A stretch of DNA of 32,000 bases from Balneolaceae bacterium UBA7797 (lineage in GTDB: Bacteria; Bacteroidota; Rhodothermia; Balneolales; Balneolaceae), in assembly GCA_002480645.1 (NCBI GenBank), contig DLCN01000003.1, positions 276,355-308,354 on the forward strand, written 5' to 3'. How positions within the stretch are numbered: the first letter of the stretch is position 1; every line of letters begins with the position of its first letter. Positions 3,598 to 22,770 of this stretch are shown piece after piece. The notes under the pieces are model-generated. The model was not told the DNA's origin. It worked only from the letters and a program-made list of their open reading frames with translations, and made no database searches. The translations under genes were made by a program, and so were the position numbers.

Positions 3598-3617
3598 TCC
3601 AAAGATTTTAAAAGAAA

Positions 3618-4598
3618 ATGGCTGAACTACAATTTAGAGAAGCAATAAAACAGGCAATTGATGAAGAAATGGGCCGTGATGAAAATGTTTTCATCATGGG
3701 TGAAGAAGTTGCCGAATATAACGGAGCCTATAAAGTAACCGAAGGGTTGCTGGACAAATATGGCTATAAAAGAGTGATTGATACGCCGATCTCTGAGCTT
3801 GGGTTTGCAGGAATAGGGGTTGGTGCTGCCATGCATGGATTACGACCTATCGTTGAATTCATGACCTTCAACTTCGCTGTATTAGCTGCTGATCAGATCA
3901 TTAACCACGCCACTAAAGTAAAGTACATGACGGGTGGTCAGGCTGATGCTCCGATCGTATTCAGAGGGCCCAATGCGTCCGCGGGTCAGCTGGGTGCTAC
4001 ACACTCGGTAGCTTATGACTCAATGTATGCAATGTTCCCCGGTCTCAAAGTGATCTACACTTCTGAACCGGATGATGCGAAAGGGTTAATGAAATCAGCG
4101 ATCCGTGATGACAATCCGGTATTGTTCATGGAATCAGAGCAAATGTATGGTCTGAAAGGTGAAGTTTCTGAAGAAGAAGATTATATCATCCCAATTGGTA
4201 AAGGAAAGATCAAACGGGAAGGTTCTGATGTAACGATCATCGCACATGGTAAGATGTATCACGTCGCAAAACAGGCCGCGGCTCAGTTAGCTAAAGATGG
4301 AATTGAAGCCGAGATCATTGATCCACGCACGGTAAAACCACTGGATCTGCCGTTGATCGTGGAATCCATCAAAAAAACGAATCGATGTGTAGTAGTTGAC
4401 GAAGCTCATCCATTTGCCGGATTTGCTGCAGAAATTGGATTCCTGATCCAGAGAGAAGCATTTGATTATTTAGATGCACCGGTTCAGCGGGTTACGTTAC
4501 CGGATGTGAACGCTCCGTTCTCAAAGAAGTTATTTGATCTTTGGTTACCTAGTCCAAAGAATGTAATTGAAGCAGTAAATCAGGTAACTTACCGATAG
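3618..4598 (+). CDS. pdhB: Pyruvate dehydrogenase E1 component, beta subunit
   Basis: 326 aa. Transketolase-like pyrimidine-binding and C-terminal domains are recognisable (VFIMGEEVAEYNGAYKVTEGL, RVIDTPISELGFAGIGVGAAMHGLRPIVEFMTFNF, IIDPRTVKPLD). It starts 20 nt after pdhA. Confidence 0.9.
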   Translation: MAELQFREAIKQAIDEEMGRDENVFIMGEEVAEYNGAYKVTEGLLDKYGYKRVIDTPISELGFAGIGVGAAMHGLRPIVEFMTFNFAVLAADQIINHATKVKYMTGGQADAPIVFRGPNASAGQLGATHSVAYDSMYAMFPGLKVIYTSEPDDAKGLMKSAIRDDNPVLFMESEQMYGLKGEVSEEEDYIIPIGKGKIKREGSDVTIIAHGKMYHVAKQAAAQLAKDGIEAEIIDPRTVKPLDLPLIVESIKKTNRCVVVDEAHPFAGFAAEIGFLIQREAFDYLDAPVQRVTLPDVNAPFSKKLFDLWLPSPKNVIEAVNQVTYR

Positions 4599-4628
4599 AA
4601 ATTTAACCATTTATATAATTCTACCATT

Positions 4629-5879
4629 ATGGCTATTAAAATAGAAATGCCCAAGTTGAGCGATACCATGGAAGAAGGGGTGATCGCAAAATGGAATGTT
4701 AAAGAAGGGGATAAAGTAGAAGCCGGAGATATTATCGCCGAGGTTGAAACCGACAAAGCTACCATGGATGTGGAAGTGTTTGATGCCGGTACAATTTTGA
4801 AGATTGTTCCCGGCGAAGGTGACTCTGTTCCTTTAGGCGGTTTAATAGCCGTTATTGGTGAAGAGGGAGAAGATATCAGTGATCTGACCTCAGGTGATGA
4901 TCCAGGAGATAGTTCTTCATCTGAAAAAGAGGCAGAGAGCAAATCTGAGCCTGAAGCAGAAGAGAAGAAAGAGACTACAGCTCCTGCTTCTACTTCAGAT
5001 GAAGATGGTAGAATTAAAGCATCGCCACTGGCTCGCAAGATCGCAGAAGATAAAGGAATTAATCTTTCTGATGTAAATGGCTCCGGACCTGAAGGTCGGA
5101 TCATTAAAAAAGATGTGGAAGATTTCAGTCCTTCTAAAGGAGGGTTAACCAAACCTGAGGCTACATCTGCTTCTAAACCGGCTCCTGTATTCGATAATCT
5201 GGAGAGTAAAGAAGTAAAAGTTTCTCAGATGAGAAAAGTGATCGCCCGTCGTCTCTCGGAGAGTAAATTCACCAATCCACATTTCTATGAAACGATCGAT
5301 ATAGACATGAAAGCAGCAATGGCAGCAAGAAGTGCACTAAATGCTGCGAATGATGTGAAGATCAGCTTTAATGACATTGTTGTAAAAGCCTCTGCGATCG
5401 CTTTGACCCGCCATCAGGCAATTAACAGCTCATGGCACGATGATGTGATCATGGAACATGGTGACGTTCATATTGCGGTTGCAGTTGCTATCGATGAAGG
5501 GCTTATGACTCCTGTGATCGATCATGCCGACAAAAAAGGCCTGGCTCAGATCAGTTCCGAAACCCGTGAATTAGCCGGATTAGCCCGTGATCGTAAACTT
5601 CAGCCTGAACAAATGGAAGGCAGTACCTTTACGATCAGTAATCTGGGAATGTTTGGGATCGAAGAATTTACAGCCATCATAAATCCACCAAATGCCTGTA
5701 TCATGGCAGTAGGAGCGATCCGTGACGTACCTGTGGTTGAAAATGGGGAAGTAGTTCCAGGAAAGAGAATGAAAGTCACTTTATCAAGCGACCACCGTAT
5801 TGTGGATGGAGCGAAAGCGGCACAATTTCTCAATACCTTCAAAGAGCTCATGGAAAATCCACTTTCTATGCTACTGTAG
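4629..5879 (+). CDS. pdhC: Dihydrolipoamide acetyltransferase (E2) of the pyruvate dehydrogenase complex
   Basis: 416 aa. It has one lipoyl domain with the lipoyl-lysine motif (AEVETDKATMDVE) and an acidic/Ser-rich linker. A peripheral-subunit-binding domain follows (ASPLARKIAEDKGINLSDVNGSGPEGRIIKKDV), then a catalytic domain with DHRIVDGA. No E3 (lpd) gene is in the window. Confidence 0.9.
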   Translation: MAIKIEMPKLSDTMEEGVIAKWNVKEGDKVEAGDIIAEVETDKATMDVEVFDAGTILKIVPGEGDSVPLGGLIAVIGEEGEDISDLTSGDDPGDSSSSEKEAESKSEPEAEEKKETTAPASTSDEDGRIKASPLARKIAEDKGINLSDVNGSGPEGRIIKKDVEDFSPSKGGLTKPEATSASKPAPVFDNLESKEVKVSQMRKVIARRLSESKFTNPHFYETIDIDMKAAMAARSALNAANDVKISFNDIVVKASAIALTRHQAINSSWHDDVIMEHGDVHIAVAVAIDEGLMTPVIDHADKKGLAQISSETRELAGLARDRKLQPEQMEGSTFTISNLGMFGIEEFTAIINPPNACIMAVGAIRDVPVVENGEVVPGKRMKVTLSSDHRIVDGAKAAQFLNTFKELMENPLSMLL

Positions 5880-6009: not shown

Positions 6010-7815
6010 TTATGGATATTCTAAAAGGTAGATGACCGGCTCAGAACCACGATCAGCTAAACGACGGGCTAAAGCGTTTGCATCTCTGAAGGAGTTAAAG
6101 ATCTCAGATACCTGTACATAATAAAGCCCATTTTCCATCCCGAATACTCGGGTATCGATATTTAGGGCTTCTTTTAATGATTGTACGGCAGCTTCTGCGA
6201 GCTGTCGGTTCTCAAATACATTAATTTGTATCTGATATCTGGCCCGGTAATTTCTGAAATCTTCCGTATTTGGCTTGAGTTCGAGATTTCTGGTTAATCC
6301 CTTTTCCCTGATATTGTTAAGAACAGATAATGCATGATCCTGGCGGGTGTATGGTCCATTCACCACAAGAAAACGGTTTTCAGATTTTACGATATAGGAT
6401 TCGATCCCATAATCTCCAAGAATGGTAAATGAATAATCAATGGCATTTTGCTCTGAAGAGAATGAACCAAATTGGATTAGGTAAGTTAGGGTCTCTATTC
6501 TGTTACTTCCTGCATCACATCGGTGAACAAGATTCAGGTTTAACTCAGGCATCTCACTCTTAACAGTTCTGTAATCTTCAATTGCTTTGGTAAAGTTTTG
6601 ATCACCGGAAGAACGAATGGTATACAGGTCGTTATTAAAACCAATATTAAGTGCTACCCCGGTTCTTTCCGTTACTGAGTTTGAGACATCAAAAGCACTG
6701 TTTAAAGATCTGAAGCTGCCAACCTGAATTGCATAACTACAATTATCCCTGGAACCAAGTGAGAAAACAGCATTTGATGATACCGGTTCCGGATCAGGGG
6801 TTTCAGGCTGTTCAGTTACCTTTTCCGGTTGATCTGCAGCTAATGGTTCGTCAGCTTCAGCAATTTCTTCGTCCTCATCAGGAGTCTGTATGACCTCTTC
6901 TTCTGTATCAACCGTTGTAGCATTATTATTGCTAGCTGATGGGGGCTGAACGGGCTCCGGTAATGGTTTGATTGCCGGAATCGCATCAGATATAAACGTT
7001 AGAGAATCGCTAACAGTCAGGAATTGATTGGTCAGTGAATCTATGTTTGCATTTTGTAGAGAATCAGACTCTAACGAATCTGCCTCAGCAAGTAATTCCT
7101 CTTCCGGCTCAGGTTTTTCTTCCATAGAATAATACAAACGAAGCACTACTCTTCTGTTCATCTCCCTCGGAGCCTCAACCCGTTCGCCATTCTCATCGGT
7201 GATATATCTTGGTCGTGAATCCGCGTAACCTGAAGCCTTCAGGCGAGATTTATCAATGCCTTCTGAAATGAAATACTTGACCACATCTGCTGCCCGTGCT
7301 GTAGATAATTCCCAGTTAGATGGATAAATACGAGATGAGATCGGCACATCATCCGTATGGCCTTCAACATCAATATTATAATCGTCGTACTCATTTTTCC
7401 GGATGGCGACAACGATCTTATTCAAAATATCTTTAGCTGATGAAAGAAGGTTTGCACTTCCCGAATTAAAGAAAGAGTCACTGCTGAATCTGATCTTAAT
7501 ATCATTAAGATCACGGTTGATCTCGATCTTACCTGCCTCGATCTCGTCTACAAGGTAGATCTCCAGTTGACGCTGAACTTCTTCGATCGGGGTGGTTATA
7601 TACTCGGTTTCTATCACCGAGGAGTCGTATAAATTTGAGACGGAAAGGGGATCTTGTTTTGTGATCTGAGAGACGGAAAGTAATACGATCAAAAAACCAA
7701 GGATCACCGTAATGATATCGAGATAACTGATCTGCCAGCTATCCTCATCTTCTCCCTCAAAATGACTGTTGGGGAAGAGTGAATTTCTATTTCTATTGGA
7801 TGGTCCCGGACTCAA
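6010..7815 (-). CDS. MotB-like stator anchor: N-terminal MotB TM/plug, OmpA-like peptidoglycan-binding domain, acidic Pro-rich linker and three C-terminal SPOR repeats
   Basis: 601 aa. The TM segment WQISYLDIITVILGFLIVLL carries the single conserved Asp of MotB-type proteins (compare E. coli YADFMTAMMAFF). The OmpA_C-like core is IDVEGHTDDVPISSRIYPSNWELSTARAADVVKYF...GYADSRP...NRRVVLRL (about 7132-7503). Three SPOR-like units lie at about 6013-6741 (YAIQVGSFRS..., YLIQFGSFSS...LVVNGPYT, YQIQINVFEN...YYVQVSEIF). The start codon is TTG at 7815, 18 nt after the motA-like stop; no in-frame ATG precedes the TM helix. Confidence 0.8.
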   Translation of the reverse strand: MSPGPSNRNRNSLFPNSHFEGEDEDSWQISYLDIITVILGFLIVLLSVSQITKQDPLSVSNLYDSSVIETEYITTPIEEVQRQLEIYLVDEIEAGKIEINRDLNDIKIRFSSDSFFNSGSANLLSSAKDILNKIVVAIRKNEYDDYNIDVEGHTDDVPISSRIYPSNWELSTARAADVVKYFISEGIDKSRLKASGYADSRPRYITDENGERVEAPREMNRRVVLRLYYSMEEKPEPEEELLAEADSLESDSLQNANIDSLTNQFLTVSDSLTFISDAIPAIKPLPEPVQPPSASNNNATTVDTEEEVIQTPDEDEEIAEADEPLAADQPEKVTEQPETPDPEPVSSNAVFSLGSRDNCSYAIQVGSFRSLNSAFDVSNSVTERTGVALNIGFNNDLYTIRSSGDQNFTKAIEDYRTVKSEMPELNLNLVHRCDAGSNRIETLTYLIQFGSFSSEQNAIDYSFTILGDYGIESYIVKSENRFLVVNGPYTRQDHALSVLNNIREKGLTRNLELKPNTEDFRNYRARYQIQINVFENRQLAEAAVQSLKEALNIDTRVFGMENGLYYVQVSEIFNSFRDANALARRLADRGSEPVIYLLEYP

Positions 7816-7833
7816 AGTGTACGACTTTATACT

Positions 7834-8631
7834 TTATAGTTGTGTCTTATTCCGGCGCATATGGGCCTGCAGTTTATCGTAGATCTGTAATGAGGTTTTT
7901 TGATTTTCGATAAGTAAAACGCCTTCCAGTATCATTTTTTCACGAAAATATTGAAGTGAAGCAATATTATTCATTTTTCGGGCCATAGGAATGAATATGA
8001 AGTTACCAATGATGATCCCATATAAAGTGGTCATAAGCGCAGCTGCCAGTCCTGTAAGCAGAGACTCTACTTCGTTGAACCCTGAAAGCATCACAATAAG
8101 GCCAAAAAGTGTACCCAGCATTCCAAATACAGGGGCAGATTTACCCATGCTCATTATGATCTGATTGATCTGCAATTGTTTAGAGAAATTCTCCTCAATA
8201 TTTATCTCTCCCAATTCCCGGAGTTCCTCTGAACTATAGTTGGTATCCATCACAGAAAACAAATAGCCTTCGAAGGTTTCCATATAATCTTCACTTAATT
8301 GAGCAACCGCTTGTACCCGGTCTTCTTTGATCATTTTCTGCCATTCTAAGATACGTTGAATATCATCCTCTAAAAGGTCATCAGAGATGGTGCTGTGAGA
8401 GAATAAACGCAGGCTTTCCCGATAGGCTCTCAGTACATTTCTAAATGGGTAACTGATAAAGATACTGGCAGAGACACCACCGATCACAATAGCCAAACTT
8501 GGTAGATTCAGATATTCCAGTGTGGTTGGTATCAGCTCATATTGGGTAAAACCCATTACTAATAATGATCCCCACAGTAAAACCATCATGGAGATCAAAA
8601 AGCTGAGTATGTTTAAGATAGAAGTACGCAT
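7834..8631 (-). CDS. MotA/TolQ/ExbB-family proton-channel protein (MotA-like stator subunit)
   Basis: 265 aa. Two N-terminal TM helices are followed by a charged cytoplasmic loop of about 100 aa. The MotA_ExbB core is MGKSAPVFGMLGTLFGLIVML...LAAALMTTLYGIIIGNFIFIPMARKM, with the conserved Pro residues in TM3 and TM4. It lies immediately upstream of the MotB-like gene. Confidence 0.85.
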   Translation of the reverse strand: MRTSILNILSFLISMMVLLWGSLLVMGFTQYELIPTTLEYLNLPSLAIVIGGVSASIFISYPFRNVLRAYRESLRLFSHSTISDDLLEDDIQRILEWQKMIKEDRVQAVAQLSEDYMETFEGYLFSVMDTNYSSEELRELGEINIEENFSKQLQINQIIMSMGKSAPVFGMLGTLFGLIVMLSGFNEVESLLTGLAAALMTTLYGIIIGNFIFIPMARKMNNIASLQYFREKMILEGVLLIENQKTSLQIYDKLQAHMRRNKTQL

Positions 8632-8643
8632 AAGTGGTAATTC

Positions 8644-9147
8644 TTAAAAATTTTTCCTGAATTTGTCATCAAGCAAACCTTGATTCTGTAGCTCTCTGAG
8701 CACATAGTTTGAGTAGGAGAGCGGTAGATTTTCGTCCAGCTCTAAGGCTTTTCTCCAATCCCGTACAAAATTATCAACCGAACCTAATCCCAGAAAGATA
8801 CTACCTCTAAGAGCAAGAATATCTGCATTTTCTTTAAAACCGTACGCCTTGTTTATATAGTAAAGGGCCTGTTCATAATCTCCGTTATAATATCTCTGTT
8901 GAGCCAGGATATAGAATGTTGTAAGTCCGTTAGCCCTGGCCTGATATTCATTGTACAGATCGATCTTATATTGTTTTTTGATCTCGTTTCTTAATGAATC
9001 AGCTACCGAAGACCGATCACTGTCTTCGTTATCCTGTGTATCCTCAGGATCAGTAAAACTCTCAGCAGAGACATCATCCATCGCTTTTTCACTACTTTTA
9101 CACGAAAAAAGCAGGGCGTAGGCAGGAATCATCATGATCACACCCAA
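8644..9147 (-). CDS. Putative TPR-repeat lipoprotein
   Basis: 167 aa. The N-terminus is hydrophobic and ends in a lipobox-like LLFSC, followed by an acidic stretch. TPR-like helices follow (YNGDYEQALYYINKAYGFKENADILALRGSIFLGLGSVDNFVRDWRKALELD). The ORF-track start is TTG at 9147; alternative ATGs at 9135 and 9132 are in frame, so the start is uncertain. Confidence 0.5.
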   Translation of the reverse strand: MGVIMMIPAYALLFSCKSSEKAMDDVSAESFTDPEDTQDNEDSDRSSVADSLRNEIKKQYKIDLYNEYQARANGLTTFYILAQQRYYNGDYEQALYYINKAYGFKENADILALRGSIFLGLGSVDNFVRDWRKALELDENLPLSYSNYVLRELQNQGLLDDKFRKNF

Positions 9148-9181
9148 ATAGAATAGTGATATTTGACTCCTGTTTTTGATA

Positions 9182-11062
9182 TCAGTTTTCCTCTTTTACC
9201 AGTTCGCCTTTTTTATGAAGCTCCGCGTAATAACGGATAGACTTCATTAACATTGATTTGGCCGGATTGGTTGCTTTAATATCTTTGATCGGATTCTCCT
9301 GTAATTCCAACCGGATCAGGCGTTGCTCTCTGGAAGGTCGTACAGATAATATCCGGTCAAGGATTTTAGGTTCCAAACCTGCAACAGCTTCCAGTATAGT
9401 GCCTGTATTCAGTTCATTGGCAGCATGCTTAATGATCTCAATATCAAGATCCGGAATCTGTTCTATTGTGATGAATTGTTCTTTTAATGCTTCCGCAACC
9501 ACAGAGCCCGTAGCCTGGAGTTGCTCAATATATTGCCGCTGTTGGGTAACAGGAAGTTTTTCAAGAACCGGAAGGATGTTTTCGGTTCCTTTTCGTTCTT
9601 CTTTTTCCAGCTCGATCAATTCCATGGTTTTATCGAATAGCGAATTTGATATAACCCGATGCTGTTTATAGGTAAGATTATGTAGCGTAGCCATTTTTAA
9701 CATGATGTCAGCTACTCTGTCTCTGTCTAATTGATCCAGTATGGAAGCAGCCCGATATTCATCCAGATAATCAATGATCAGAGCTGCAGTTTGGGTATTC
9801 TCTGTTTTGAGCAATCTGAGAATAACTTTCTCAGATACGTGATCCAGAAAACGGAATAAATTAAGCTGGGAGTGTTTCTGCCTGTTTTCTGATTCACCTT
9901 TGTTACCACCCAGTAATTCGTTGAATTCTGTAGCTATTTGTTTTCGTTCTTCCGTACTGAGAGGGGGTAAGTTATCCAGAGCATCACTGATCGCCTGATA
10001 ATAATCCGGTCGTATATCTTTTTTCAGAGAACGAATAAGGTGTCGATCTACTGACGCAATGACCTGAGCGGCACGCCGGGCTCCCTGGTCCGCATGTTCA
10101 TCCATCCAGTATTCAAACAACAGAGAAATATCCTGTGGCTTATTGAAGAAATTCTGAATCAGAAGATCTACTTCATTCGCTTTATCCGGCTCTATAGTTT
10201 TCAGGATCACTGAATTTGAGGTCTGATCGTTTTTAACTTTTCCTTCAACAGTAAGATCACTTCTTAGATTGCTGCGCTGGGACCGGATTGTAGATTGATC
10301 GGTGGAAGATTTTCGGGTAAAGATGCGAGATATAACCAGAGCGATCAGAAACAATACAAAAAGAACCGCCAGAGGGATGTAATCATTAATGCTTTCAGCA
10401 AAAGTTTTTTCTACTTCGGGCTGATTATTCTGTTGAGGAAGTTGCGGGAGTTCCTGAGCCATATCATCCTGAAAATCAGGCATATTTAAGCGCCGAATGT
10501 TGATCACATCTCCACGATTATCATCTGTTTTAGCAGCGATACCTGTGATCAATCTCATAAATTCCAGTTCACGGGTGGTAAGAGATGAATCAGCATAAAT
10601 ATTAATTACCAGGCTATTCAGTTTAAGAGTACGAATGGTATTCTGATTCAGGATCTTTTCCGGATTATTCTCCACATTTTCATCCGGAAGAAGATTCTCT
10701 TCGGGTAAAAAAGGGAGTCCCGGCATGGTAATATTATTAGGTCGCTGCCTTATGACCTGATTTTGAGTAACGGTGAAGGTTTCGTCGACCATCTCGGCAC
10801 TGATATCAACATCTACAAAAAATGAGCGGGGGTCGAAATAATTGGAAAGTATCTGTAAGACCTGTGCATCGTAACGTTGTTCAAGGGTTGCAACTCTGAG
10901 TTCAAAAGAATCGGAAGTGGTTACATTTTCCCCGGTTTGGGCATAACTATTACCTCCAGCAAAAAGAATGATGAGAGTAAGAGCGAAAACCCAAAGTAAA
11001 TTACTGCTTAAGCCAAATCGTAAGTGCTTAAAATAGATGATTTTGCAATTATAGGTCGACAT
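9182..11062 (-). CDS. Membrane-anchored FliG-like protein: signal/TM, periplasmic domain of about 185 aa, one TM helix, then complete FliG N/M/C-like region
   Basis: 626 aa. The N-terminal h-region is LLWVFALTLIILFAGGNSYA-Q. The periplasmic segment is aa 42-227 (10382-10939) and the TM helix is YIPLAVLFVLFLIALVISRIF (10322-10381). Cytoplasmic aa 310-626 (9185-10135) align by eye with E. coli FliG recalled from memory. N domain: GARRAAQVIASVDRHLIRSL...LSTEERKQIATEF vs [20 protein letters not shown]...ISNKQLTDVLAEF. M domain: FRFLDHVSEKVILRLLKTENTQTAALIIDYLDEYRAASILDQLDRDRVADIMLKMATL vs [55 protein letters not shown]. C domain: SVRPSREQRLIRLELQENPIKDIKATNPAKSMLMKSIRYYAELHKKGELV vs NMSQRAADILRDDLANRGPVRLSQVENEQKAILLIVRRLAETGEMV. 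Confidence 0.7.
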   Translation of the reverse strand: MSTYNCKIIYFKHLRFGLSSNLLWVFALTLIILFAGGNSYAQTGENVTTSDSFELRVATLEQRYDAQVLQILSNYFDPRSFFVDVDISAEMVDETFTVTQNQVIRQRPNNITMPGLPFLPEENLLPDENVENNPEKILNQNTIRTLKLNSLVINIYADSSLTTRELEFMRLITGIAAKTDDNRGDVINIRRLNMPDFQDDMAQELPQLPQQNNQPEVEKTFAESINDYIPLAVLFVLFLIALVISRIFTRKSSTDQSTIRSQRSNLRSDLTVEGKVKNDQTSNSVILKTIEPDKANEVDLLIQNFFNKPQDISLLFEYWMDEHADQGARRAAQVIASVDRHLIRSLKKDIRPDYYQAISDALDNLPPLSTEERKQIATEFNELLGGNKGESENRQKHSQLNLFRFLDHVSEKVILRLLKTENTQTAALIIDYLDEYRAASILDQLDRDRVADIMLKMATLHNLTYKQHRVISNSLFDKTMELIELEKEERKGTENILPVLEKLPVTQQRQYIEQLQATGSVVAEALKEQFITIEQIPDLDIEIIKHAANELNTGTILEAVAGLEPKILDRILSVRPSREQRLIRLELQENPIKDIKATNPAKSMLMKSIRYYAELHKKGELVKEEN

Positions 11063-11102: not shown

Positions 11103-14102
11103 TTATTCTAATGATCCGCCTATATTTATGATCTGATCCAGAGCTTCCATTTCAGGAATATAAATATCCGGATTAAATCTTACAGCCATATTCCAATTCT
11201 CTCTGGCGAGCTCTTTCTCGCCTTTCAAATAGTGGAGGCTACCCTTTAGAGCGTATCCTTGTGCCGTCTTGAAAATGTCCAGCGATTCGTTAACCAGATC
11301 CATCGCCTGTTCAATTCTTTTTCTGTAGAATGCATTCTGTGCCATAATGATCAAACGTAACGAACGGTCCAGATCATTAAGTAAAGACTCTCTGTATGCG
11401 ACCAATTCTCTGTCTGTTTCTAAACTTGCCATGATCGTTTGAAGCGTATCATTCAGCGCTTCCTGCTCTTCATCATAATCTTTTGGAACGATCAGAAAGT
11501 GTAAGCCTTCTATAAAGTCACCTTCAGATTTTGCCTCCACTTCAATATCCAGTTTTTCGGGGATGGTTCTGGAACCAAGAAGATTCAGCTGACTTTGATC
11601 GACGGTAAGTTCATATTTACCCGGAGGGAGTTCATAATCGTAAAAAGTACCATCCGTAAACGTTCTGATGTCTTTTCTGAAGTCATTTTCAGTACCAACG
11701 ATATGGATATTCAATCCTCCCTGAGGCTGGGTATGACCCTCTTCGTATAACCGCTCTACATTACCTTCAATAACGCCCGATAAATAAAAGGGGATATCGA
11801 TCTTCTTAAAGCTGTTCGGGTCGGTTACAAGCGAGAATTTTTCCAGTTCCGGAACCAGCATCGGATTATTCAGCGAAGCCTTCATCATTTCCATATTGTA
11901 CCGGTAATATGACTGCATCTGCGTGTAATAAAGTACTCCGTTCTTATAGATGGGGAAAGAGCCGGACCTTCCGATCCTCATCTTACCTTCTGGTATCAGG
12001 TTATCTTCTTCTTTATCGTACGTATGATTGTTATTGTTATCTACAAACATACGAATCGCAGTTCCTGATTTACCGACCTGATTTCTGCTCGTGATAATGA
12101 AATTCTTATAGTTACTGTCGTAACCCACCGATCCGCGGACATTTTGTGTGGCCGTATAACTTGTTGAATTGGTGGTAAAGGTGGTGGTAGTTCTTGCTTT
12201 ATTGAATTCAAAAATAAAGCCGATTCTGAAATTTGTATTCTGTGTAATGAAATTCTGCCCCAAAGAAACCTGAATTCGGCCGGTTTTCATAACACTTTTC
12301 GAGATCATCATTTCCATGGATTCAGATTGTTTCAAATACGGTCGGTATCTGTAAGTACCTCTGAAAAATGTCCCGATAAGGAAATCAGGGATCTTTTGTT
12401 CTCTGGTTAAACTATAGGTTACAGAACTGTTAACGGAGGCCGCACGAGTCATCTCCAAAGGGTTGAAGGTATCAATCAGTCTGTCACTGTAGCCCAGTCT
12501 TAAGTTCATTTTCTTAACACGAGTGTTCAGATCCAGTCTGTAGTTTGAAAAATTCTCGTTATCTCTGAAGCGGGTATAGGTAGAAGCCCTCACATTTAAC
12601 GGGAAATTGCCGATCCTGAAAGGATAAAATCCGCTTAAGCTGAGCTGACTACTATTTCCACCTTGATTATACAATCCGGATTGTGCAATAAAGTTTGTGT
12701 AATTAACGCTAAAACTGGAGCTGTTTGCGTATATGGCATTAATTCCGGACCTGAAAAATCCATTTGAGATAGCTTCCATGGTTACAATGTAATTTGTAAG
12801 CAGACGCCCTGATACTTTGGAAGTAATGCTGGGACCGGGATTGGAGACTAACCCGTCAAAATACTCAAATCCGGCTCCGGCTGTCAGCCAGTTTGTAACC
12901 CCCACAGTGGTTTTTCCCTGTACAGTATAATTGCGATCTTCAGATCCTATAAGTGAATTTTTTAGCCTTCCTGCGTTTAAGTGATAGGTGACTTCGCCTT
13001 TAGGATTAAAGTTGAATGGAACCTGTACACGTCTCGATTCCTGAATGATCTGTCCCGTAGGACCGTAAATTCTAAGGTCTAATTGTGAGGATCCATAATA
13101 TAACGGTGCAATAAAACGATATCTCCCCAGATCATCCGCTTTTTGAAAATCGATAAGTGAATTGTTTAAGTACAATTCTACTTCTGATTGTGGAGTCACA
13201 TAACCCTGAACTTCGTATTCATCAAAAAACTGACGGCTTTCAATGGGCTCATTAGTTAAACGCACACCAACATATTGCGAATTCAATGCTCCGTCCAGCG
13301 TATTGTCACCAACAGCTACTTTTGTTATTAGCGGTGTATCTCTGATAATATATCGCCAGCGTAGGTTATTAGTGGCGAAGGTCGAGAATTCCGAATTAAC
13401 TGCTGCAATTGTTGAACCCTGCAGATCCCCACCGGCTAATTGAAGACCAATGTTATTACTCATATTAAAGGTAGTAGAGCTTTGACTATTGATCGCAGAA
13501 ATGGAGTAGTCCATGAAGCCTCCATCAAATGCACTCCATTTCCGGTCAAATTCCAGTGGAAAGAATTCGGTGGTAGTTCGGTAACCACGTTGCATATTCT
13601 CTCTTTTTGCCGTTCTTACCGTTCTTTCGATACGTGGAATAGGAATATTGGTCTCCAGATCTAATGCAAGGTTATTGAAATCAACCGTAAAATTTAGCCC
13701 AAAGATATTTTTAAAAATGTCTGGATGTAAGAAATAGTCCAGCTCTTTGATCAGAACCTCTTCCGGTTTGATCTCTGTAGAGGTACCATCAAATGTAATT
13801 GTATAATTTTCAAGATCGATTCGATACGGAATCTGATCGAGCCCAAAATTTCCCTGGACTACCAGACCATTTACATTGGCTTCGAAATCGAGCGTAGAAA
13901 AAAGACCGTTAACAGGCAGGTAGAAAACATCGTCAAGGTAGTAAGAAGTGACGATGCTGTTAATTACACCACGGTGTCTGAATGCAAGATATACCTCGAA
14001 ACTATCATCCTCGTCTACCTGAGCAACACTGTTAACAGGAAACAGTAATCCAAGTAGCAGAGAAAGAATTAAATAACGGGCAAAATTGCATCTTACATTC
14101 AC
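11103..14102 (-). CDS. Outer-membrane fimbrial usher-like protein with a C-terminal CarboxypepD_reg-like domain and TPR-like tail
   Basis: 999 aa with signal peptide LILSLLLGLLFPVNSVAQ. The segment VQGYVTPQSEVELYLNNSLIDFQKADDLGRYRFIAPLYYGSSQLDLRIYGPTGQIIQESRRVQVPFNFNPKGEVTYHLNAGRL (about 12960-13215) follows the usher pattern seen in PapC/FimD (G.a.p.a.V.v.qNG..i....V.pGpF.i.dl....sGdL.v.v.e.dG......v.vp....l..G...Y.l..Gr). A long region of alternating beta-strand-like sequence follows. The C-terminal part has GVIEGNV...TFTDGTFYDYELPPGKYELTV and a TPR-like end (AQGYALKGSLHYLKGEKELARENWNMAVRFNPD). The start is GTG at 14102 and overlaps the chaperone stop (GTGA). Confidence 0.65.
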   Translation of the reverse strand: MNVRCNFARYLILSLLLGLLFPVNSVAQVDEDDSFEVYLAFRHRGVINSIVTSYYLDDVFYLPVNGLFSTLDFEANVNGLVVQGNFGLDQIPYRIDLENYTITFDGTSTEIKPEEVLIKELDYFLHPDIFKNIFGLNFTVDFNNLALDLETNIPIPRIERTVRTAKRENMQRGYRTTTEFFPLEFDRKWSAFDGGFMDYSISAINSQSSTTFNMSNNIGLQLAGGDLQGSTIAAVNSEFSTFATNNLRWRYIIRDTPLITKVAVGDNTLDGALNSQYVGVRLTNEPIESRQFFDEYEVQGYVTPQSEVELYLNNSLIDFQKADDLGRYRFIAPLYYGSSQLDLRIYGPTGQIIQESRRVQVPFNFNPKGEVTYHLNAGRLKNSLIGSEDRNYTVQGKTTVGVTNWLTAGAGFEYFDGLVSNPGPSITSKVSGRLLTNYIVTMEAISNGFFRSGINAIYANSSSFSVNYTNFIAQSGLYNQGGNSSQLSLSGFYPFRIGNFPLNVRASTYTRFRDNENFSNYRLDLNTRVKKMNLRLGYSDRLIDTFNPLEMTRAASVNSSVTYSLTREQKIPDFLIGTFFRGTYRYRPYLKQSESMEMMISKSVMKTGRIQVSLGQNFITQNTNFRIGFIFEFNKARTTTTFTTNSTSYTATQNVRGSVGYDSNYKNFIITSRNQVGKSGTAIRMFVDNNNNHTYDKEEDNLIPEGKMRIGRSGSFPIYKNGVLYYTQMQSYYRYNMEMMKASLNNPMLVPELEKFSLVTDPNSFKKIDIPFYLSGVIEGNVERLYEEGHTQPQGGLNIHIVGTENDFRKDIRTFTDGTFYDYELPPGKYELTVDQSQLNLLGSRTIPEKLDIEVEAKSEGDFIEGLHFLIVPKDYDEEQEALNDTLQTIMASLETDRELVAYRESLLNDLDRSLRLIIMAQNAFYRKRIEQAMDLVNESLDIFKTAQGYALKGSLHYLKGEKELARENWNMAVRFNPDIYIPEMEALDQIINIGGSLE

Positions 14103-14926
14103 CGGATTGAGATCGTTTCTGAAGCAGTGACCGGATCCATCTGGATCAGATCATTTGAAGATAAATCTGGCCTTTGAGATTCAAACAGGGCAGATACACG
14201 GTAAGTGCCGGGAGCAAGGTCGGTAAGATCGAAATCCTGACGATAAACGCCATCGAAGTACATAGAGGTAGAAATGAAACTACGTCGTACTTCTTCTCCC
14301 GCCGGGTTAAACAAAGAAAGTGTAACTGAACCTAAAAAAGGAGAGTTTCCCGTTCTGTTATAATCCACCATAACAGCGAGACTTCCGTCATCATTTAAAG
14401 AAGAACGAATTCCTTCAATTTCAATTCCGGTTGAAACGTCTCCTTTTTTATAAAAAAGTCCGGTTACCTGTTCTACGGTTATACCAACAGTTGCACTAAC
14501 TACCTCAGAGGTTTGGAGCTCTAAGGGTGGTGCTTCCGGTGACGATTTTGTCTTGATTCTTGCCCAGTAGGTGCCATCATTCAGATCATTAGGAGGGGTT
14601 ACTCTTAAACGAACCATCTGGCGTTGACCCGGTGATAACGTGAAGTTCTGAGGGAAAGCTCTGATATAATCCGCAATAGAATATTGTTGCTGAACCAGGC
14701 TATCATCAACTACAGCAGAGCGGTTGCCATCGTTATCAGTACTGCTATAGGCAAAGAAAAAATCTATCGACACTTCCTGAGTTTGGTTTCCGCCATTAAC
14801 CACCATGTAGGACCCAAACCGTGAATTGGCATCAAGAAATAGATTTGTAGGGGCAATAGTAACCTGAGCAAAGGCTACAGAACCAAACAAAAAACAAGCA
14901 AAGACTGTAATTGATATTCGTTTCAT
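14099..14926 (-). CDS. Periplasmic pilus chaperone (PapD-like, two Ig-like domains)
   Basis: 275 aa with signal peptide FACFLFGSVAFAQ. The N-domain pattern VTIAPTNLFLDANSRFGSYMVVNGGNQTQEVSIDFFF...FPQNFTLSPGQRQMVRLRV...DGTYWARIKT resembles the PapD_N signature (v.i.PtR.i......sl.v.N.g..p..vq......f.v.PP.f.l.pg..q.vRi). A second Ig-like half follows. Its stop overlaps the usher-like gene's start. Confidence 0.7.
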   Translation of the reverse strand: MKRISITVFACFLFGSVAFAQVTIAPTNLFLDANSRFGSYMVVNGGNQTQEVSIDFFFAYSSTDNDGNRSAVVDDSLVQQQYSIADYIRAFPQNFTLSPGQRQMVRLRVTPPNDLNDGTYWARIKTKSSPEAPPLELQTSEVVSATVGITVEQVTGLFYKKGDVSTGIEIEGIRSSLNDDGSLAVMVDYNRTGNSPFLGSVTLSLFNPAGEEVRRSFISTSMYFDGVYRQDFDLTDLAPGTYRVSALFESQRPDLSSNDLIQMDPVTASETISIR

Positions 14927-17835: not shown

Positions 17836-19368
17836 TTATTGCCCGGTAGTGGTTGTTGTTCCATCACTATCGTCCTTTTCCGTGGTGGTAGTAGCCGGAA
17901 CTTCTTTAACTTTATCTTTCCAATACACTACAGAGAATACGCTCTCACGAGGAAAAGCAGGGGGAATGTACCCTTTTAGACGGGCATCGTATTGATAGTT
18001 TTTTGAATACCCGGAAACCGCCTGATTGGTATTAGCATTAAAAGTACCAACCGGACCACGATTCTTTTGAACAATTCCACCAAATAGATTTATGGTGCCT
18101 TTTAGCCCCCCGGAACTGTTATTATAATTTTCAACATAGAAAGATGAATTCAGTGCCATGATGGAAGCCTGAATATCAATATCCTGCGTACCACTATCTC
18201 TGTGTGCATTCTGGTCAACAACAACATCACTTTCGCTTACAAGCCCCAAAATATCTGTAGTTACGCTATCCACTCTCGGATCGGTATAATAGGTGATGTC
18301 GCCAATGATATCGATGTCATCTTCGGCGTGTACAGTGATCTCACCTTTAACAATTCCTTTTACCTCAGCTTTACCGGAGGTAGAGATGATACCGTTAAAC
18401 TCGTTCATGGTATAGGATTCAGTTTCTTCAGATTCCACATTGTAGGTCCAGCAACCGAACCAACCGCAACGTACTTCCTGGGTTACGGTAGTAGTGATGA
18501 TGTCAACATATCCGAGCTCATCATCAGCGCTGAACATTACTTTAATGTCGTTATCGAAACGAAGCCCGCCATCGTCGGCAGCAGTAACGAGTTTTTCTAA
18601 TTCATAATTAGTCGGAGCTTCTTTTTCCGGTGCATTAAAGTTAGAACCTCCGTAGAAATTCGGGTTTGTCGGATTAGTTTCGTGAGCAACCCAATTATTC
18701 GGGCTGGTGATCAGACCATAAAACGTTGGGTCTCCGGACATTCTGAATGTTCCGTTTGTATGAATCGGACCGTAGATCTCATCCCCGCTAAAGAACCAGA
18801 TCTCCTGTCCATCAGCTCCCAGTTCAGATTGGGTCATGTATGCATACTTACTGAAAGAATCGCGCTGCATCAGAACCTCAGTTTTAACTTCCACATCCTG
18901 GAAAGTGGTGGCGCTTACGAAAAGGGCTTTGTACTGATCCCAGGTACCAACACTATTATCCGTTGGTATATTTTCACTGCTTTGTGTATATGTAGTTAAA
19001 AGGCCACTTACGGTTGTTCCAACCGTAGATACCACATTTGAATTATCATCAGCGGAATAATTGGCTGTTGATGTAATATTGCCAATAGTTCGGAGGGTTT
19101 TGTCGGTTAATGTACTTGTGAGGTTAGAAGTAATATCACTGACATTGGCTACCTCATTAATATCAATAGTACCCGTCCAGTCATTATCCTTTTTCATATG
19201 CTCGATAGCATTATCGATAAGACTCTTGGATAAATTTCTTGCCTGTTGTTCCTGATAATAACTGATCGTTTTTTCAGGGATGGTCTCCATACGTTTGGCA
19301 TTATTCACCTGTACAAGACCAGTGATAATTGTTAAGCCGCTAACTAGAAAAAGTAAACTTTTACCCAT
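17836..19368 (-). CDS. PilX-N-like pilus-associated protein (set 2, large member)
   Basis: 510 aa. The single N-terminal hydrophobic helix is MGKSLLFLVSGLTIITGLVQV, followed by QQARNLSKSLIDNAIEHMKKD. This parallels the set-1 paralogue (SKNTAHSAIQLAMEKINQD) and the PilX_N pattern. The C-terminal part is beta-helix-like (GIVKGEITVHAEDDIDIIGDITYY...INLFGGIV...YQYDARLKGYIPPAFP) with a Thr-rich tail. Confidence 0.5.
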   Translation of the reverse strand: MGKSLLFLVSGLTIITGLVQVNNAKRMETIPEKTISYYQEQQARNLSKSLIDNAIEHMKKDNDWTGTIDINEVANVSDITSNLTSTLTDKTLRTIGNITSTANYSADDNSNVVSTVGTTVSGLLTTYTQSSENIPTDNSVGTWDQYKALFVSATTFQDVEVKTEVLMQRDSFSKYAYMTQSELGADGQEIWFFSGDEIYGPIHTNGTFRMSGDPTFYGLITSPNNWVAHETNPTNPNFYGGSNFNAPEKEAPTNYELEKLVTAADDGGLRFDNDIKVMFSADDELGYVDIITTTVTQEVRCGWFGCWTYNVESEETESYTMNEFNGIISTSGKAEVKGIVKGEITVHAEDDIDIIGDITYYTDPRVDSVTTDILGLVSESDVVVDQNAHRDSGTQDIDIQASIMALNSSFYVENYNNSSGGLKGTINLFGGIVQKNRGPVGTFNANTNQAVSGYSKNYQYDARLKGYIPPAFPRESVFSVVYWKDKVKEVPATTTTEKDDSDGTTTTTGQ

Positions 19369-19377
19369 GACTACACC

Positions 19378-19962
19378 TCAGAAAGGTAAATTGATGTTAT
19401 TTGGAACAAATATCCTTTTCCAAACACTTTTAGGATATTCTTTCACTGAACTTGAAACGGAATAAGGTTCTCCGGTTTCTACAATAAGCTGAACCTCAAC
19501 CTGTCGAACAAATTCGGGATTGGATGTTTCGGTGCCATTTCCAGTGTAATACTTGAGCTGGAAAAAGGTCGCCGGAAATTTAATGGTACCGTATGAATTG
19601 GCACTGGTAGGCCCTACACGCTTCAGATAATAATCATTAGGATTAGAAGTGGTGGTAACCGGGTCGGAGGTATCGAGATACCATCTTACATTGGTTACCC
19701 CAAAATTATCGGTGTCGTGCGCATCAGATTGAAAGATGATATCGTCATCATCTATTCTTGAAAACGGATCAGAAGATCCGGTGTTAAAACCAATGCGATT
19801 AAAATCATTGGTCATAACCGTTACAATATCATTGATATTATTTTGATTGATGGAGTTTAGGGTAAGTTCCTGTGTGGTAAGTAATACCTGCTGGTTAAAA
19901 CTTAAAATGGAGATCAGGAAAATTCCACCTACTAAAAATGTTGTTACAATACCTACGTTCAT
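19378..19962 (-). CDS. Pilin/pseudopilin-like protein (set 2, PilW/GspJ-like member)
   Basis: 194 aa. The N-terminal hydrophobic helix begins right after MNVG (IVTTFLVGGIFLISILSF), followed by MTNDFNRIGFNTG. It is a paralogue of the 204-aa set-1 protein (LTYDFPKIGYNRN; shared ...PNPNDY/F.LKR...). No Glu is found near the N-terminus. Confidence 0.45.
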   Translation of the reverse strand: MNVGIVTTFLVGGIFLISILSFNQQVLLTTQELTLNSINQNNINDIVTVMTNDFNRIGFNTGSSDPFSRIDDDDIIFQSDAHDTDNFGVTNVRWYLDTSDPVTTTSNPNDYYLKRVGPTSANSYGTIKFPATFFQLKYYTGNGTETSNPEFVRQVEVQLIVETGEPYSVSSSVKEYPKSVWKRIFVPNNINLPF

Positions 19963-19971
19963 GCTTTCACC

Positions 19972-20391
19972 TTAGTAACTATATGATTTAACATAATTAA
20001 GGGTGATAAAGATATCGGGATCGAAAGTGGTGTTTACCACTGTTACCCCAACCTGATAGCGACGTATTGAACCGTCATCTTCGATCATTTCCGATTCTGC
20101 ATACAAGTAAAAATCATCGGAATACTGATCACTTGAGCCATAATTATAAGTGATCGTTTTCGGGTAATCACTGTAAATATAGCGTCCATCATCCGGGTCG
20201 AGCTCTTCTTCAGCATAGATCCACTGAACCTTGTCCAATTCATCCTGTGCGATAGCAATAGCCCTGTATTCGGCTTCAGCTCTGTAAAGAGTCTGCCGGG
20301 ACTGGTTATAGCTCCGGGATGTATTTATGGCCAGCATGGAGAAGACCATCATGGCAGCCGTTAAAAAGATTATTTCAGCGTAGCTCGACAT
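19972..20391 (-). CDS. Pilin/pseudopilin-like protein (set 2, small member)
   Basis: 139 aa. The N-terminus MSSYAEIIFLTAAMMVFSMLAI resembles a shortened prepilin signature (Y-x-E-I instead of F-T-L-I-E). AIAIAQDELD is shared with the set-1 small paralogue (VIAIAQDFID). Confidence 0.45.
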   Translation of the reverse strand: MSSYAEIIFLTAAMMVFSMLAINTSRSYNQSRQTLYRAEAEYRAIAIAQDELDKVQWIYAEEELDPDDGRYIYSDYPKTITYNYGSSDQYSDDFYLYAESEMIEDDGSIRRYQVGVTVVNTTFDPDIFITLNYVKSYSY

Positions 20392-20525
20392 TTTCAGAGT
20401 TTATTATATTTGAAAATACTCAATGTTCGCCCCTTATGTAATTAGACTGTATTAATTAAAATAATCTAAAAAAGCTATTTAAGTCTGCTAAAATTACCAA
20501 TCAGCTCCTAAAATGAAAAGGGCGG

Positions 20526-21635
20526 CTATTCAAAGGTACTTACCAGATTATACCGGTTCTGTTTTAAGTGATTTGCAGATGCCGTTCTTGCATAATCAAT
20601 GGCTAAACAATCATATTGGATATGGATGTTTCCACTCAGGTCCACATCCAGTGTGTTATTATTGTCGTCAGTATTTCCGATCAGAACTGACCCGTTAAGA
20701 TCTGGAGTACCTTTACCATCGAAGTCGAACGCATTTTCGAATACGATCAAACCGTTGAATGTAAAGTTACCGGCTACAGAAAGCGCCCCTTCATACTCCA
20801 GTTCTCCGCCGGAACGGATAACCAAAATTCCATAACCATCAGAGATACCACCCGTTAACTTTGCATAAGATTCTACAAAAAATATACCCGGATCGTCCGC
20901 AGAACCAAATTCCCCCTTATAATTCCCGCTGATGTGCTGAACTCCGGGTTGACCGGCAAGTCGTGCAATTAATTCATCTACCGGCTTGTAGGAGATGTCC
21001 GGATCGATGGAAATCTTATCAACGCTACTTTCCAGGTCACCATACTTACCGAATGCACCGGTTGTTACTTCCGCATAGCTGGAAAGATCAGGAACCGTGA
21101 TCGCGGGAATATCGGGACAGGTGCCACTGGCATCGTTTCCACTAATGGATGAGCTGCCTCCCATGCTAAAAGTGAAATTATCAGAGGCAAAGCCTAATCC
21201 GCCTTTTGGTTCGGGAACGAAATTCAACGCTGATTTAATGTAAGTACTGATCACCGTATGACTGGTGGAAGAGCTTTTGTATGAGGCTGAGCCTTTGGTT
21301 CCTTGTCCTCCGTACCAGGAAGTACTGTAAATTCTTATGGTATCCGGATCTAATATGGTTGCGCCTGCTGCTATCACATCATAATAAAGTTCAGTGTACG
21401 CTCCGTCGATCTCGTTTTCCCAGGGATTATTCACACTCGGCGACCAGGACGGATCCTGATTGATCTTTTCCATTGCCAATTGAATGGCACTGTGAGCTGT
21501 ATTCTTTGACTGTATCTCTTTGGCGTATTCAGAGGTGAGGCGTTGTACACGTTCTCGTTGGCTGTACATGCCGAGCCGGATGATCCCCAGCACCATGATT
21601 GCGCCAACCGATAAAATTACCATTCCACGTCCCAT
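20526..21635 (-). CDS. PilX-N-like pilus-associated protein (set 1, large member)
   Basis: 369 aa. The N-terminal helix is MGRGMVILSVGAIMVLGIIRLGM, followed by AKEIQSKNTAHSAIQLAMEKI. The C-terminal part is beta-helix-like (GILVIRSGGELEYEGALSVAGNFTFNGLIVFENAFDFDGKGTPDLNGSVLIGN). Confidence 0.5.
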   Translation of the reverse strand: MGRGMVILSVGAIMVLGIIRLGMYSQRERVQRLTSEYAKEIQSKNTAHSAIQLAMEKINQDPSWSPSVNNPWENEIDGAYTELYYDVIAAGATILDPDTIRIYSTSWYGGQGTKGSASYKSSSTSHTVISTYIKSALNFVPEPKGGLGFASDNFTFSMGGSSSISGNDASGTCPDIPAITVPDLSSYAEVTTGAFGKYGDLESSVDKISIDPDISYKPVDELIARLAGQPGVQHISGNYKGEFGSADDPGIFFVESYAKLTGGISDGYGILVIRSGGELEYEGALSVAGNFTFNGLIVFENAFDFDGKGTPDLNGSVLIGNTDDNNNTLDVDLSGNIHIQYDCLAIDYARTASANHLKQNRYNLVSTFE

Positions 21636-21646
21636 AGAACTACTCC

Positions 21647-22261
21647 TTAGTTATCCCGAAGGTTTACTGGTGAGAATCTTTTCGTCCATGAGGTGCTTAC
21701 GTATGAGTCGTTTGAAAAACTATTACGTTTTAAGCCCACAGAACTCTGTGTATTCATGATTATCTCGATCTGAGTGATAGAATCAATCGTGGATTTTGCA
21801 GTTTTTGCATAGATGGGAGTCGGGAGCGGGGTAGTGCTTCCTAGGGATGAATAATACCGGATCTCGAAATCAACAACACCAGTATTCATTTCAACGGTAC
21901 TGCCATTTACTGTTCTTTTAAGAACAAAATCGTTTGGGTTTGGTGTGGATGTGACGGAATCACTTGTAAACTCCCACCGGATCAATTCAAGGGATTCATC
22001 CGCACTGTTGTCTATATTGGCATAGAATTCAATAAAATCATCCCCCGCAGCTCTGATCAGGGTGTCCGGTAATGAATTCCGGTTATAACCGATCTTCGGA
22101 AAATCGTAGGTAAGAGTCTCGACAACTTCTGAGACTTTAGTTTTTTGGATTTCCTGAAGTGTTAATTCATTTCCGCTAAAGTTAGTGTTATAGCCAACTG
22201 TGGTAATGATCACGATCAGAAATCCTGCAATGATATAGCTGAGTATTAATCCAAAGTTCAT
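21647..22261 (-). CDS. Pilin/pseudopilin-like protein (set 1, PilW/GspJ-like member)
   Basis: 204 aa with N-terminus MNFGLILSYIIAGFLIVIITTV. It is a paralogue of the 194-aa protein, starts 5 nt after the upstream gene and ends 11 nt before the downstream gene. Confidence 0.45.
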   Translation of the reverse strand: MNFGLILSYIIAGFLIVIITTVGYNTNFSGNELTLQEIQKTKVSEVVETLTYDFPKIGYNRNSLPDTLIRAAGDDFIEFYANIDNSADESLELIRWEFTSDSVTSTPNPNDFVLKRTVNGSTVEMNTGVVDFEIRYYSSLGSTTPLPTPIYAKTAKSTIDSITQIEIIMNTQSSVGLKRNSFSNDSYVSTSWTKRFSPVNLRDN

Positions 22262-22266
22262 AGTGA

Positions 22267-22770
22267 TCAGTCAGCGTAAAAGCTTCGAAGAAACTTAAAA
22301 TGATAGTTGTTTGCAGAGCCGTTATTCTCCAGTATGTCGGAAGAAATAGTGATCTCCATTATTTTAAGTGTCGAAAAGCTATTAATCACATTCGATCCGT
22401 CATAATAATCAACAGAGATCGACACTTCGTAATCAACACCACCTGAAGTAGTGATTGTTTGGGTCCAGCCATCATAGTCATCAAAATCATCGAAATTTGC
22501 GCGGGTAGCTTCTCCGGCTTCAGGGCCCAGATTTGCGGTAAATCCTGAAGGTATATTAACCGGAACTCCACCATCGGTGGTTTCTTCATCAAAGGTAGTG
22601 GAACGGGATTCATCTATAAAATCCTGAGCAATGGCAATGACCTGATCCTCCAGTTCTCCCTCGACCATACTTTGGGTGTTGGTGATAATAGCCCGGTTCG
22701 AGTTCATAACAAGAAATGAAACCAGAATTAATGCTAAGATTGTTTGAAGTATTTCAGTGTATCCACTCAT
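22267..22770 (-). CDS. Pilin/pseudopilin-like protein (set 1, small member)
   Basis: 167 aa. The N-terminus MSGYTEILQTILALILVSFLVM has Gly then Y-T-E-I-L, like a prepilin G/FTLIE site shortened by two residues. It is a paralogue of the 139-aa protein. Confidence 0.45.
   Translation of the reverse strand: MSGYTEILQTILALILVSFLVMNSNRAIITNTQSMVEGELEDQVIAIAQDFIDESRSTTFDEETTDGGVPVNIPSGFTANLGPEAGEATRANFDDFDDYDGWTQTITTSGGVDYEVSISVDYYDGSNVINSFSTLKIMEITISSDILENNGSANNYHFKFLRSFYAD

Follow-up and report, generated by a model that had tools for sequence, protein, structure and literature searches.

The type IV filament superfamily is defined by a class III signal peptide and a dedicated peptidase, and genome annotation uses both for recognising pilins. 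Three described systems are closest to the locus studied here. GspI-GspJ-GspK (XcpV-XcpW-XcpX) of type II secretion are encoded by three adjacent genes, small, middle and large, in one tight unit. The FimU-PilV-PilW-PilX(-PilY1) operons of type IVa pili often lie apart from pilBCD and pilMNOPQ and have a large non-pilin adhesin gene adjoining them, and Myxococcus xanthus has multiple alternative minor-pilin sets. In the mshO-mshP-mshQ region of Vibrio MSHA, the MshQ gene is found beside small pilin-like genes. Here we analysed a stretch of 32,000 nucleotides (nt), referred to as the window, from Balneolaceae bacterium UBA7797 (GCA_002480645.1, contig DLCN01000003.1, positions 276,355 to 308,354), in which six genes form two consecutive small-middle-large triplets, S1-M1-L1 (set A) and S2-M2-L2 (set B) (Table 1). 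A GspIJK- or PilVWX-like way of working is the best-supported reading, on the strength of the M fold, the order of the genes and their context in relatives, and the six genes are probably two alternative sets of a very divergent module, similar to minor pilins, for the tip or the priming of a type IV pilus-like system.

The triplets resemble GspIJK in their layout of three adjacent genes of rising size in one tight unit, in a middle protein with the GspJ/XcpW fold (in the M1 model), and in a large protein with an extra domain and an N-terminal helix free of acidic residues. They differ from GspIJK in having no sequence-profile similarity to it, a leader of 1-3 residues without basic residues, and an acidic residue that either S or M, but not both, has at precursor position 6. 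L has a beta-solenoid/DUF4900-like extra domain, whereas that of GspK is an alpha-domain, and the clusters associated with triplets have a PilT-like ATPase.

With FimU-PilV-PilW-PilX the triplets share the presence of several paralogous sets per genome, the frequent separation of the set from the core genes, and an adjoining large adhesin gene, which is the giant surface protein in Balneolaceae and a Big_1/Invasin_D3 lipoprotein following L in locus L075 (triplet loci of relatives, from genomes and metagenomes, were numbered L002-L141). However, they have three members rather than four and no canonical class III signal, and the giant adhesin has a type IX sorting domain and would therefore be exported independently of any pilus. 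The initial annotation of this DNA had called the giant protein MshQ-like, and DUF2341 and Laminin_G_3 were indeed found in it. The likeness to MSHA is one of domains and layout, a large DUF2341 and Laminin-G protein standing beside small pilin-like genes; relative to MSHA, the genes run in the opposite order, the giant protein has more than double the length and a type IX sorting domain at its end, and mshE, mshG and mshL are not found near the triplets.

Two paralogous gene sets and their relatives

All six open reading frames (ORFs) were present in the ORF list at the positions and lengths, and on the minus strand, given by the initial annotation. The genes inside each triplet are separated by 5-11 nt and the two triplets by 134 nt. 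The pairwise paralogy in the same order that had been claimed for the triplets was borne out. In pairwise comparison the small proteins S1 and S2 share 33% identity over 85 amino acids (aa) with an E-value of 4e-11, and the middle proteins M1 and M2 share 28% identity over their full length (E 1e-21). For the large proteins BLAST matched the N-terminal 69 aa alone (25% identity, E 2e-8), and comparison of the L1 and L2 family profiles aligned 290 columns (hhalign probability 99%, E 1e-18), with the confidence mostly in the N-terminal helix; the N-terminal helix of L1 is homologous to that of L2. The short motifs previously quoted for the pairs were all confirmed except AIAIAQD, since S1 has VIAIAQD and the common motif is IAIAQD.

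Profile search with the M family found 845 representatives of clusters at 50% identity, 586 of them below E 1e-10. The genome scan gave 53 loci, almost all labelled as Balneolaceae or its genera, with two labelled only as Rhodothermia and Bacteroidota, and a metagenome scan with distant members gave 483 relatives, of which 80 loci entered the analysis. Balneolaceae carriers include OZ243096.1, OZ252011.1, OZ252262.1, NZ_OZ245785.1 and the culturable Gracilimonas tropica DSM 19535; Melioribacter roseus is a further culturable carrier. The genes are adjacent and co-oriented in the window and in about 140 loci, and the order S, M, L was found in every locus with room for it. Standalone triplets among unrelated housekeeping genes occur in several Balneolaceae genera (S1-M1-L1) and in Ignavibacteriales, which fits a module that relies on a machine encoded at another site. 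S-M-L belongs to a large unannotated family, which may mark a pilus lineage built unlike the textbook one.

The tandem duplication proposed for the window is correct as a description of its layout but not as a recent event. The set A and set B types are both kept across Balneolaceae genera, in either order, and the L2 type, which carries DUF4900, matches lineages far outside Balneolaceae at 135-256 bits with the L2 family hidden Markov model (HMM). Therefore the duplication is ancient, a common trait of the family and not a local peculiarity; a recent tandem duplication was ruled out, the sets being two separate ancient types. Set B is optional within Balneolaceae and is located before or after set A. 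The p130 gene follows L2 in nearly every Balneolaceae locus with set B, also where the two sets are in reversed order, as a constant fourth gene of set B. Distant lineages often have two or three triplets in a row (L062, L065, L071, L088, L097, L099, L100, L106, L109, L118, L122, L125, L129 and L132). Three triplets, set A once and set B twice, were found in one Balneolaceae genome, and another has an extra truncated L1 copy of 277 aa between its two sets (both observed with L010/L019).

N-terminal sequences and predicted folds

The N-termini of the six proteins were compared with those of orthologues from the 53 Balneolaceae loci, in which the ORFs start exactly at these N-termini without upstream extension. 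S1 begins with M-x-G-Y-x-E, with G3 in 51, Y4 in 51 and E6 in 52 of 53 orthologues, and S2 with M-x-[SD]-[YF]-x-[DE], the aromatic residue at position 4 and the acidic residue at position 6 being present in 22/22. M begins with M-N-x-G (Gly at position 4 in 50/59; for M2, M-N-x-G in 21/24), and L with M-G-[RK] (Gly at position 2 in 56/56), L1 showing invariant M-G-R in 56 orthologues. In the alignment of the M1 family the invariant residues are M1, G4, D53, I57, G58, W96, N108, P109 and R116. A hydrophobic stretch follows a leader of 1-3 residues, which ends in Gly in S1, M and L.

The acidic residue of S (Glu or Asp) is at precursor position 6, which is +3 from the Gly and becomes +5 only if Met alone is removed, and no acidic residue was found in the corresponding N-terminal stretch of Balneolaceae M and L. 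The altered motif described in the initial annotation, with Glu at +3 after the Gly/Ser in the small members and none in the middle and large ones, is thus seen in the Balneolaceae orthologues as well. That annotation had also proposed the absence of a conserved Tyr/Glu among orthologues as a sign of ordinary signal anchors; since Y-x-E is conserved in the S1 orthologues, no such absence was observed.

In distant lineages S begins with MNTGQ, M with MGFSTLIDILGS and L with MGR or MGK. The N-terminus of distant M, MG/FSTLID, is near the canonical G/FTLIE, with the leader reduced to Met-Gly. Among non-Balneolaceae S-M pairs an acidic residue was found in M in 95/95, and S had none in 85; among Balneolaceae pairs it was found in S in 77/77, with none at the equivalent position of M. 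This clean swap of a single N-terminal acidic residue between S and M was seen across about 170 pairs (the window and L002-L141). Most simply, each S-M pair would need one acidic residue, as charge pairing between the helices of a filament would predict. As judged from these N-termini, the signal is best explained as a degenerate class III type, whose leader would consist of Met plus 0-2 residues with Gly at the end.

An AF2 (AlphaFold2) model of M1, built from a 27-sequence alignment, reached a predicted local distance difference test (pLDDT) score of 89 and a predicted TM-score (pTM) of 0.79, and shows an unbroken helix over residues 3-56 and then an antiparallel sheet. Foldseek comparison with the PDB placed XcpW (GspJ of Pseudomonas type II secretion) in all of the top 7 positions, with probabilities of 0.91-1.00, E-values of 2e-3 to 0.1 and target-normalised TM-scores of 0.43-0.56; all other matches had probabilities below 0.2. 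The model of S1 (pLDDT 82) has the same 54-residue helix, 3-56, followed by a 4-stranded sheet, and its weak fold matches were to the minor pilin PilA of S. sanguinis and EpsI (probability 0.25-0.47). M1 therefore has the pilin fold, an alpha-1 helix of about 53 residues on an antiparallel sheet, and S1 has the same topology.

The beta-helix-like C-terminus attributed to the large members was supported for L2, which matched the Pfam family DUF4900 above its cut-off (E 1.2e-9); within the L2 family DUF4900 was found in 18/19 members, Bactofilin in 9/19 and the FapA beta-solenoid in 4/19. For L1, which had no Pfam or PDB sequence match, such a structure is merely suggested by the pattern of Gly-rich repeats.

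Gene context in relatives and competing readings

In Candidatus Coatesbacteria (L056/L057) the triplet is located inside a type IV pilus-like cluster, which consists of genes for a sigma-54 response regulator, a 137-aa protein beginning MGQQQLLLIVL, T2SSF and a T2SSE protein of 594 aa, then S, M and L, followed by a T2SSE protein of 420 aa, a TPR protein, a 297-aa protein and a secretin. By NCBIfam scores, all of which are below the trusted cut-offs, the two ATPases are best assigned to the PilB and PilT families, the secretin to PilQ, and the platform protein to GspF (E 1.8e-42) with the PilC models close behind (E 5.6e-39); the PilT-family ATPase scored 306.6 bits against a cut-off of 319.1. 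A triplet between PilB-like and PilT-like ATPase genes, accompanied by PilC-like, secretin and MGQQQ genes, was also found in L075 and L124, and the same arrangement in part in six shorter contigs (L069, L077, L079, L085, L103 and L128). In L116 the triplet is just upstream of MGQQQ, PilC-like, PilB-like and PilT-like genes, and in L055 a PilB-like gene directly follows L. The L protein of L124 scored 225 bits with the Balneolaceae L2 family HMM, which provides a direct sequence link from the window to a pilus-cluster locus.

The MGQQQ proteins are 126-137 aa long with the invariant N-terminus MGQQQLLLIVL, and their genes occur in 1-3 copies beside PilC-like and PilB-like genes (Table 1). A profile search found at least 6090 clusters at 90% identity; among the best 120 of more than 6000 matches, few of which have names, no precomputed Pfam domain was present, and members are sometimes named PilE by IMG. 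These proteins probably form the major subunit of the pilus-like system. L124 also has, among its MGQQQ genes, an ICMT/PEMT-family membrane methyltransferase (1053-1631, minus strand) and a 669-aa polytopic membrane protein without profile match (2646-4655, minus strand), which are possible candidates for pilin-modifying enzymes in a cluster without PilD. In L075 S and M are separated by a response-regulator gene (9134-9997), and the adhesin-like gene mentioned above (13102-14820), encoding 572 aa with a lipoprotein-like N-terminus, follows two tandem L genes; Invasin_D3 is common to this protein and the giant protein of the window.

According to the reading favoured here, each protein would be held in the inner membrane by its N-terminal hydrophobic helix, as predicted for S and M, and S, M and L would assemble as a heterotrimer that primes and caps the filament. 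L would be outermost, its helix being without an acidic residue as in GspK, and its variable beta-solenoid domain would make binding specific. A PilB/PilC-type machine would build the filament from a major subunit (the MGQQQLLLIVL family in relatives), and the two sets would provide two alternative tips. A single conserved acidic residue near the N-terminus would be contributed by S in Balneolaceae and by M elsewhere. The Balneolaceae machine, if one exists, would be encoded more than 10 kb from the triplets. The triplets are probably co-expressed with the giant type IX-secreted adhesin, and their co-location with it hints at a role in adhesion. Balneolaceae are abundant marine bacteria, and the finding points to an unrecognised adhesion apparatus in them.

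Several results weigh against this reading. N_methyl/TIGR02532, PilX_N and T2SSK gave no match at E<=1 in Pfam or NCBIfam, either in the six proteins or in members of their families (the S family was scanned with NCBIfam, the M and L families with Pfam), and the PilX_N-like helix previously ascribed to the large members is not supported by any profile. Above-threshold matches to T2SSI, T2SSJ, T2SSK, PilW and PilX_N were likewise absent, and there were only isolated sub-threshold ones, namely ComGG (E 0.068) and gspI (E 0.16) for S2 in NCBIfam, and T2SSJ (E 0.099) in 1 of 70 M proteins. Sequence-profile searches of the PDB with four family alignments were empty. As judged by profiles and by the Glu +5 rule for type IV pilins, with which they do not comply, the proteins do not belong to the curated pilin families. 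Basic residues are missing from the S and M leaders, and in S2 the Gly is replaced by Ser or Asp. The structural evidence covers the M1 and S1 monomers; the Foldseek E-values for M are modest, with TM-scores of 0.4-0.56, and the S1 model has no significant fold match in the PDB (best E 0.16). Core genes were found beside the triplet in only about 14 of 87 non-Balneolaceae loci, the others being standalone, and a Peptidase_A24 gene was absent from all pilus-like clusters examined. In the 53 Balneolaceae loci no T2SSE, T2SSF, secretin or MGQQQ gene was found within 10 kb of the triplets.

The comparison with GspI/J/K or PilV/W/X made in the initial annotation is therefore upheld by the fold of M and by S-M-L genes inside pilus-like clusters, but not by profiles or by the fold match of S1. 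Its alternative suggestions were a divergent filament tip that uses genes elsewhere and membrane-anchored components repurposed for this cluster. The former is favoured through the triplets within pilus-like clusters of other lineages, and the latter, taken up below for Balneolaceae, is less likely.

A wider reading, put forward tentatively, is that the triplets could be the tip module of a widespread and undescribed branch of type IV filaments, present in Ignavibacteria, Bacteroidota-like metagenome-assembled genomes, Coatesbacteria and Balneolaceae, in which all subunits would have lost a basic leader, the major pilin starting with MGQQQLLLIVL, M with MGFSTLID, L with MGR or MGK, and S with MNTGQ or MxGYxE. 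The machine genes are not accompanied by one for a prepilin peptidase, so that the subunits of such a branch would be unprocessed or processed by an enzyme not of the PilD type, and Balneolaceae would have recruited the module beside the type IX-secreted giant adhesin and the FliG-like/MotAB cluster. Three co-operonic families escape every profile, yet sit in pilus-like clusters with the MGQQQ family, which raises the question whether subunits whose leader is two residues long can form a type IV filament, in the presence or absence of PilD. In the genome of Melioribacter roseus pilT, pilQ, pilB and pilC were reported with no recognisable pilA or pilD (PMC3534657), which would fit pilins that escape standard profiles; the families described here may explain genomes of this kind.

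An alternative is that Balneolaceae S-M-L are uncleaved bitopic inner-membrane proteins that have ceased to form a filament and serve as a periplasmic scaffold for a co-encoded surface apparatus. This apparatus would comprise the giant type IX-secreted adhesin, four secreted DUF4402-like subunits, proteins of 275 aa (p275) and 999 aa (p999), and MotA/MotB with a FliG-like protein anchored in the membrane. Synteny is conserved across Balneola, Gracilimonas, Fodinibius and Halalkalibaculum, which share the giant protein, S1-M1-L1, the optional S2-M2-L2-p130 and then four DUF4402-like genes and the genes for p275, p999 and the FliG-like protein. Genes for proteins with a type IX sorting domain are enriched beside Balneolaceae triplets (28/104 adjoining genes versus 21/383 other genes), and a near-absent leader, the loss of the acidic residue from Balneolaceae M and the lack of pilus core genes within 10 kb in the 53 loci would also agree with anchors put to a new use. 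However, the same genera also have standalone S-M-L in unrelated contexts, and outside Balneolaceae the triplet never adjoins DUF4402, p275, p999, FliG-like or MotAB genes, yet is repeatedly found inside pilus-like clusters. The juxtaposition of triplet and adhesin cluster is therefore lineage-specific, and the conservation of L2 at 135-256 bits in those lineages argues for a retained function. We consider such a scaffold unlikely. A general link between triplets and type IX sorting-domain genes was rejected, since in distant lineages the counts were 2/96 adjacent versus 7/341 other genes and the enrichment is specific to Balneolaceae.

Less likely still, the triplet would correspond to GspI-J-K in a machine like that of type II secretion, in which a periplasmic filament pushes substrates out. 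The sole credible structural match is the type II pseudopilin XcpW, the number of members is three as in the GspIJK tip, and in the Coatesbacteria cluster the platform protein scored best with GspF while the ATPase scored nearly equally with GspE and PilB. Against these stand the PilT-family retraction ATPase of the clusters, which is absent from type II secretion, the best scores of the secretin to PilQ and of the ATPase to PilB, and the lack of GspC, GspL and GspM profile matches in the pilus-like clusters examined. That the proteins are not related to pilins at all, being signal-anchored periplasmic proteins whose long helix and sheet merely resemble pilins, would agree with the missing profile matches, the lack of a significant fold match for S and the modest Foldseek statistics for M, but is very improbable given the repeated embedding between PilB-like and PilT-like genes, the exclusive run of XcpW among the M matches and the resemblance of the distant M N-terminus MGFSTLID to G/FTLIE.

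Neighbouring genes and layout of the window

The ORF list and profile scans show that the minus strand of the window is one long co-directional cluster (Table 1), and its relatives assign it to Balneolaceae. The initial annotation had found no prepilin peptidase, ATPase, platform or secretin gene in the window, and accordingly no T2SSE, T2SSF, secretin or Peptidase_A24 gene was detected there. Promoter and terminator scans gave background levels only.

Table 1. Genes of the window and copies of the MGQQQ gene in relatives (positions refer to the window unless preceded by a locus number)
Feature	Position	Strand	Description
310-aa protein	31961-31029	minus	type IX secretion sorting domain (domain scan)
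Giant surface protein, 2678 aa	30931-22895	minus	DUF2341, Laminin_G_3, Invasin_D3, type IX secretion C-terminal sorting domain; directly upstream of S1
S1, small member of set A, 167 aa	22770-22267	minus	ORF; N-terminus MSGYTEIL
M1, middle member of set A, 204 aa	22261-21647	minus	ORF; N-terminus MNFG-LILSY
L1, large member of set A, 369 aa	21635-20526	minus	ORF; N-terminus MGRGMVIL; Gly-rich C-terminal domain
S2, small member of set B, 139 aa	20391-19972	minus	ORF; N-terminus MSSYAEII
M2, middle member of set B, 194 aa	19962-19378	minus	ORF; N-terminus MNVG-IVTTF
L2, large member of set B, 510 aa	19368-17836	minus	N-terminal helix, DUF4900 and beta-solenoid-like C-terminal domain
p130, small secreted protein, 130 aa	17820-17428	minus	signal peptide and about 110 aa; no profile match
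Four small secreted proteins (two match DUF4402), 275-aa and 999-aa proteins	17330-11103	minus	profile scans
FliG-like protein, 626 aa	11062-9182	minus	FliG middle and C-terminal domains
Small TPR protein, MotA, MotB (OmpA and SPOR domains)	8644-9147, 7834-8631, 6010-7815	minus	follow the FliG-like gene
alaS and pyruvate dehydrogenase genes	left end of window	plus	
MGQQQ gene copies	L056 2926-3339; L075 4304-5254; L124 2176-6044; L116 12682-13750; L068 576-1441		

The genes downstream of p130 had been taken for a chaperone-usher module. This holds in so far as DUF4402 was found in two of the four small proteins, but the putative chaperone and usher match no profile: no PapD-like chaperone or usher profile was matched in the module, and the 275-aa and 999-aa proteins had no Pfam, NCBIfam or PDB match beyond noise (a weak match to the KdgM porin).

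In the FliG-like protein a signal-like N-terminus, about 200 periplasmic aa and one membrane helix were recognised, and it matches FliG in the PDB with an E-value of 4e-8; the conserved Arg of the torque helix is kept and the acidic pair is kept in part. The MotA encoded beside it is of the flagellar type, and there is no other flagellar gene in the window. By these features FliG-like and MotAB resemble a non-flagellar pair of rotor and stator. A metagenome scan with the FliG-like protein gave no relatives, and we found no relevant literature on Balneolaceae pili, a FliG-like non-flagellar motor or DUF4900. An identical cluster is located on a 757-kb TARA Oceans scaffold, which recurs in many samples.

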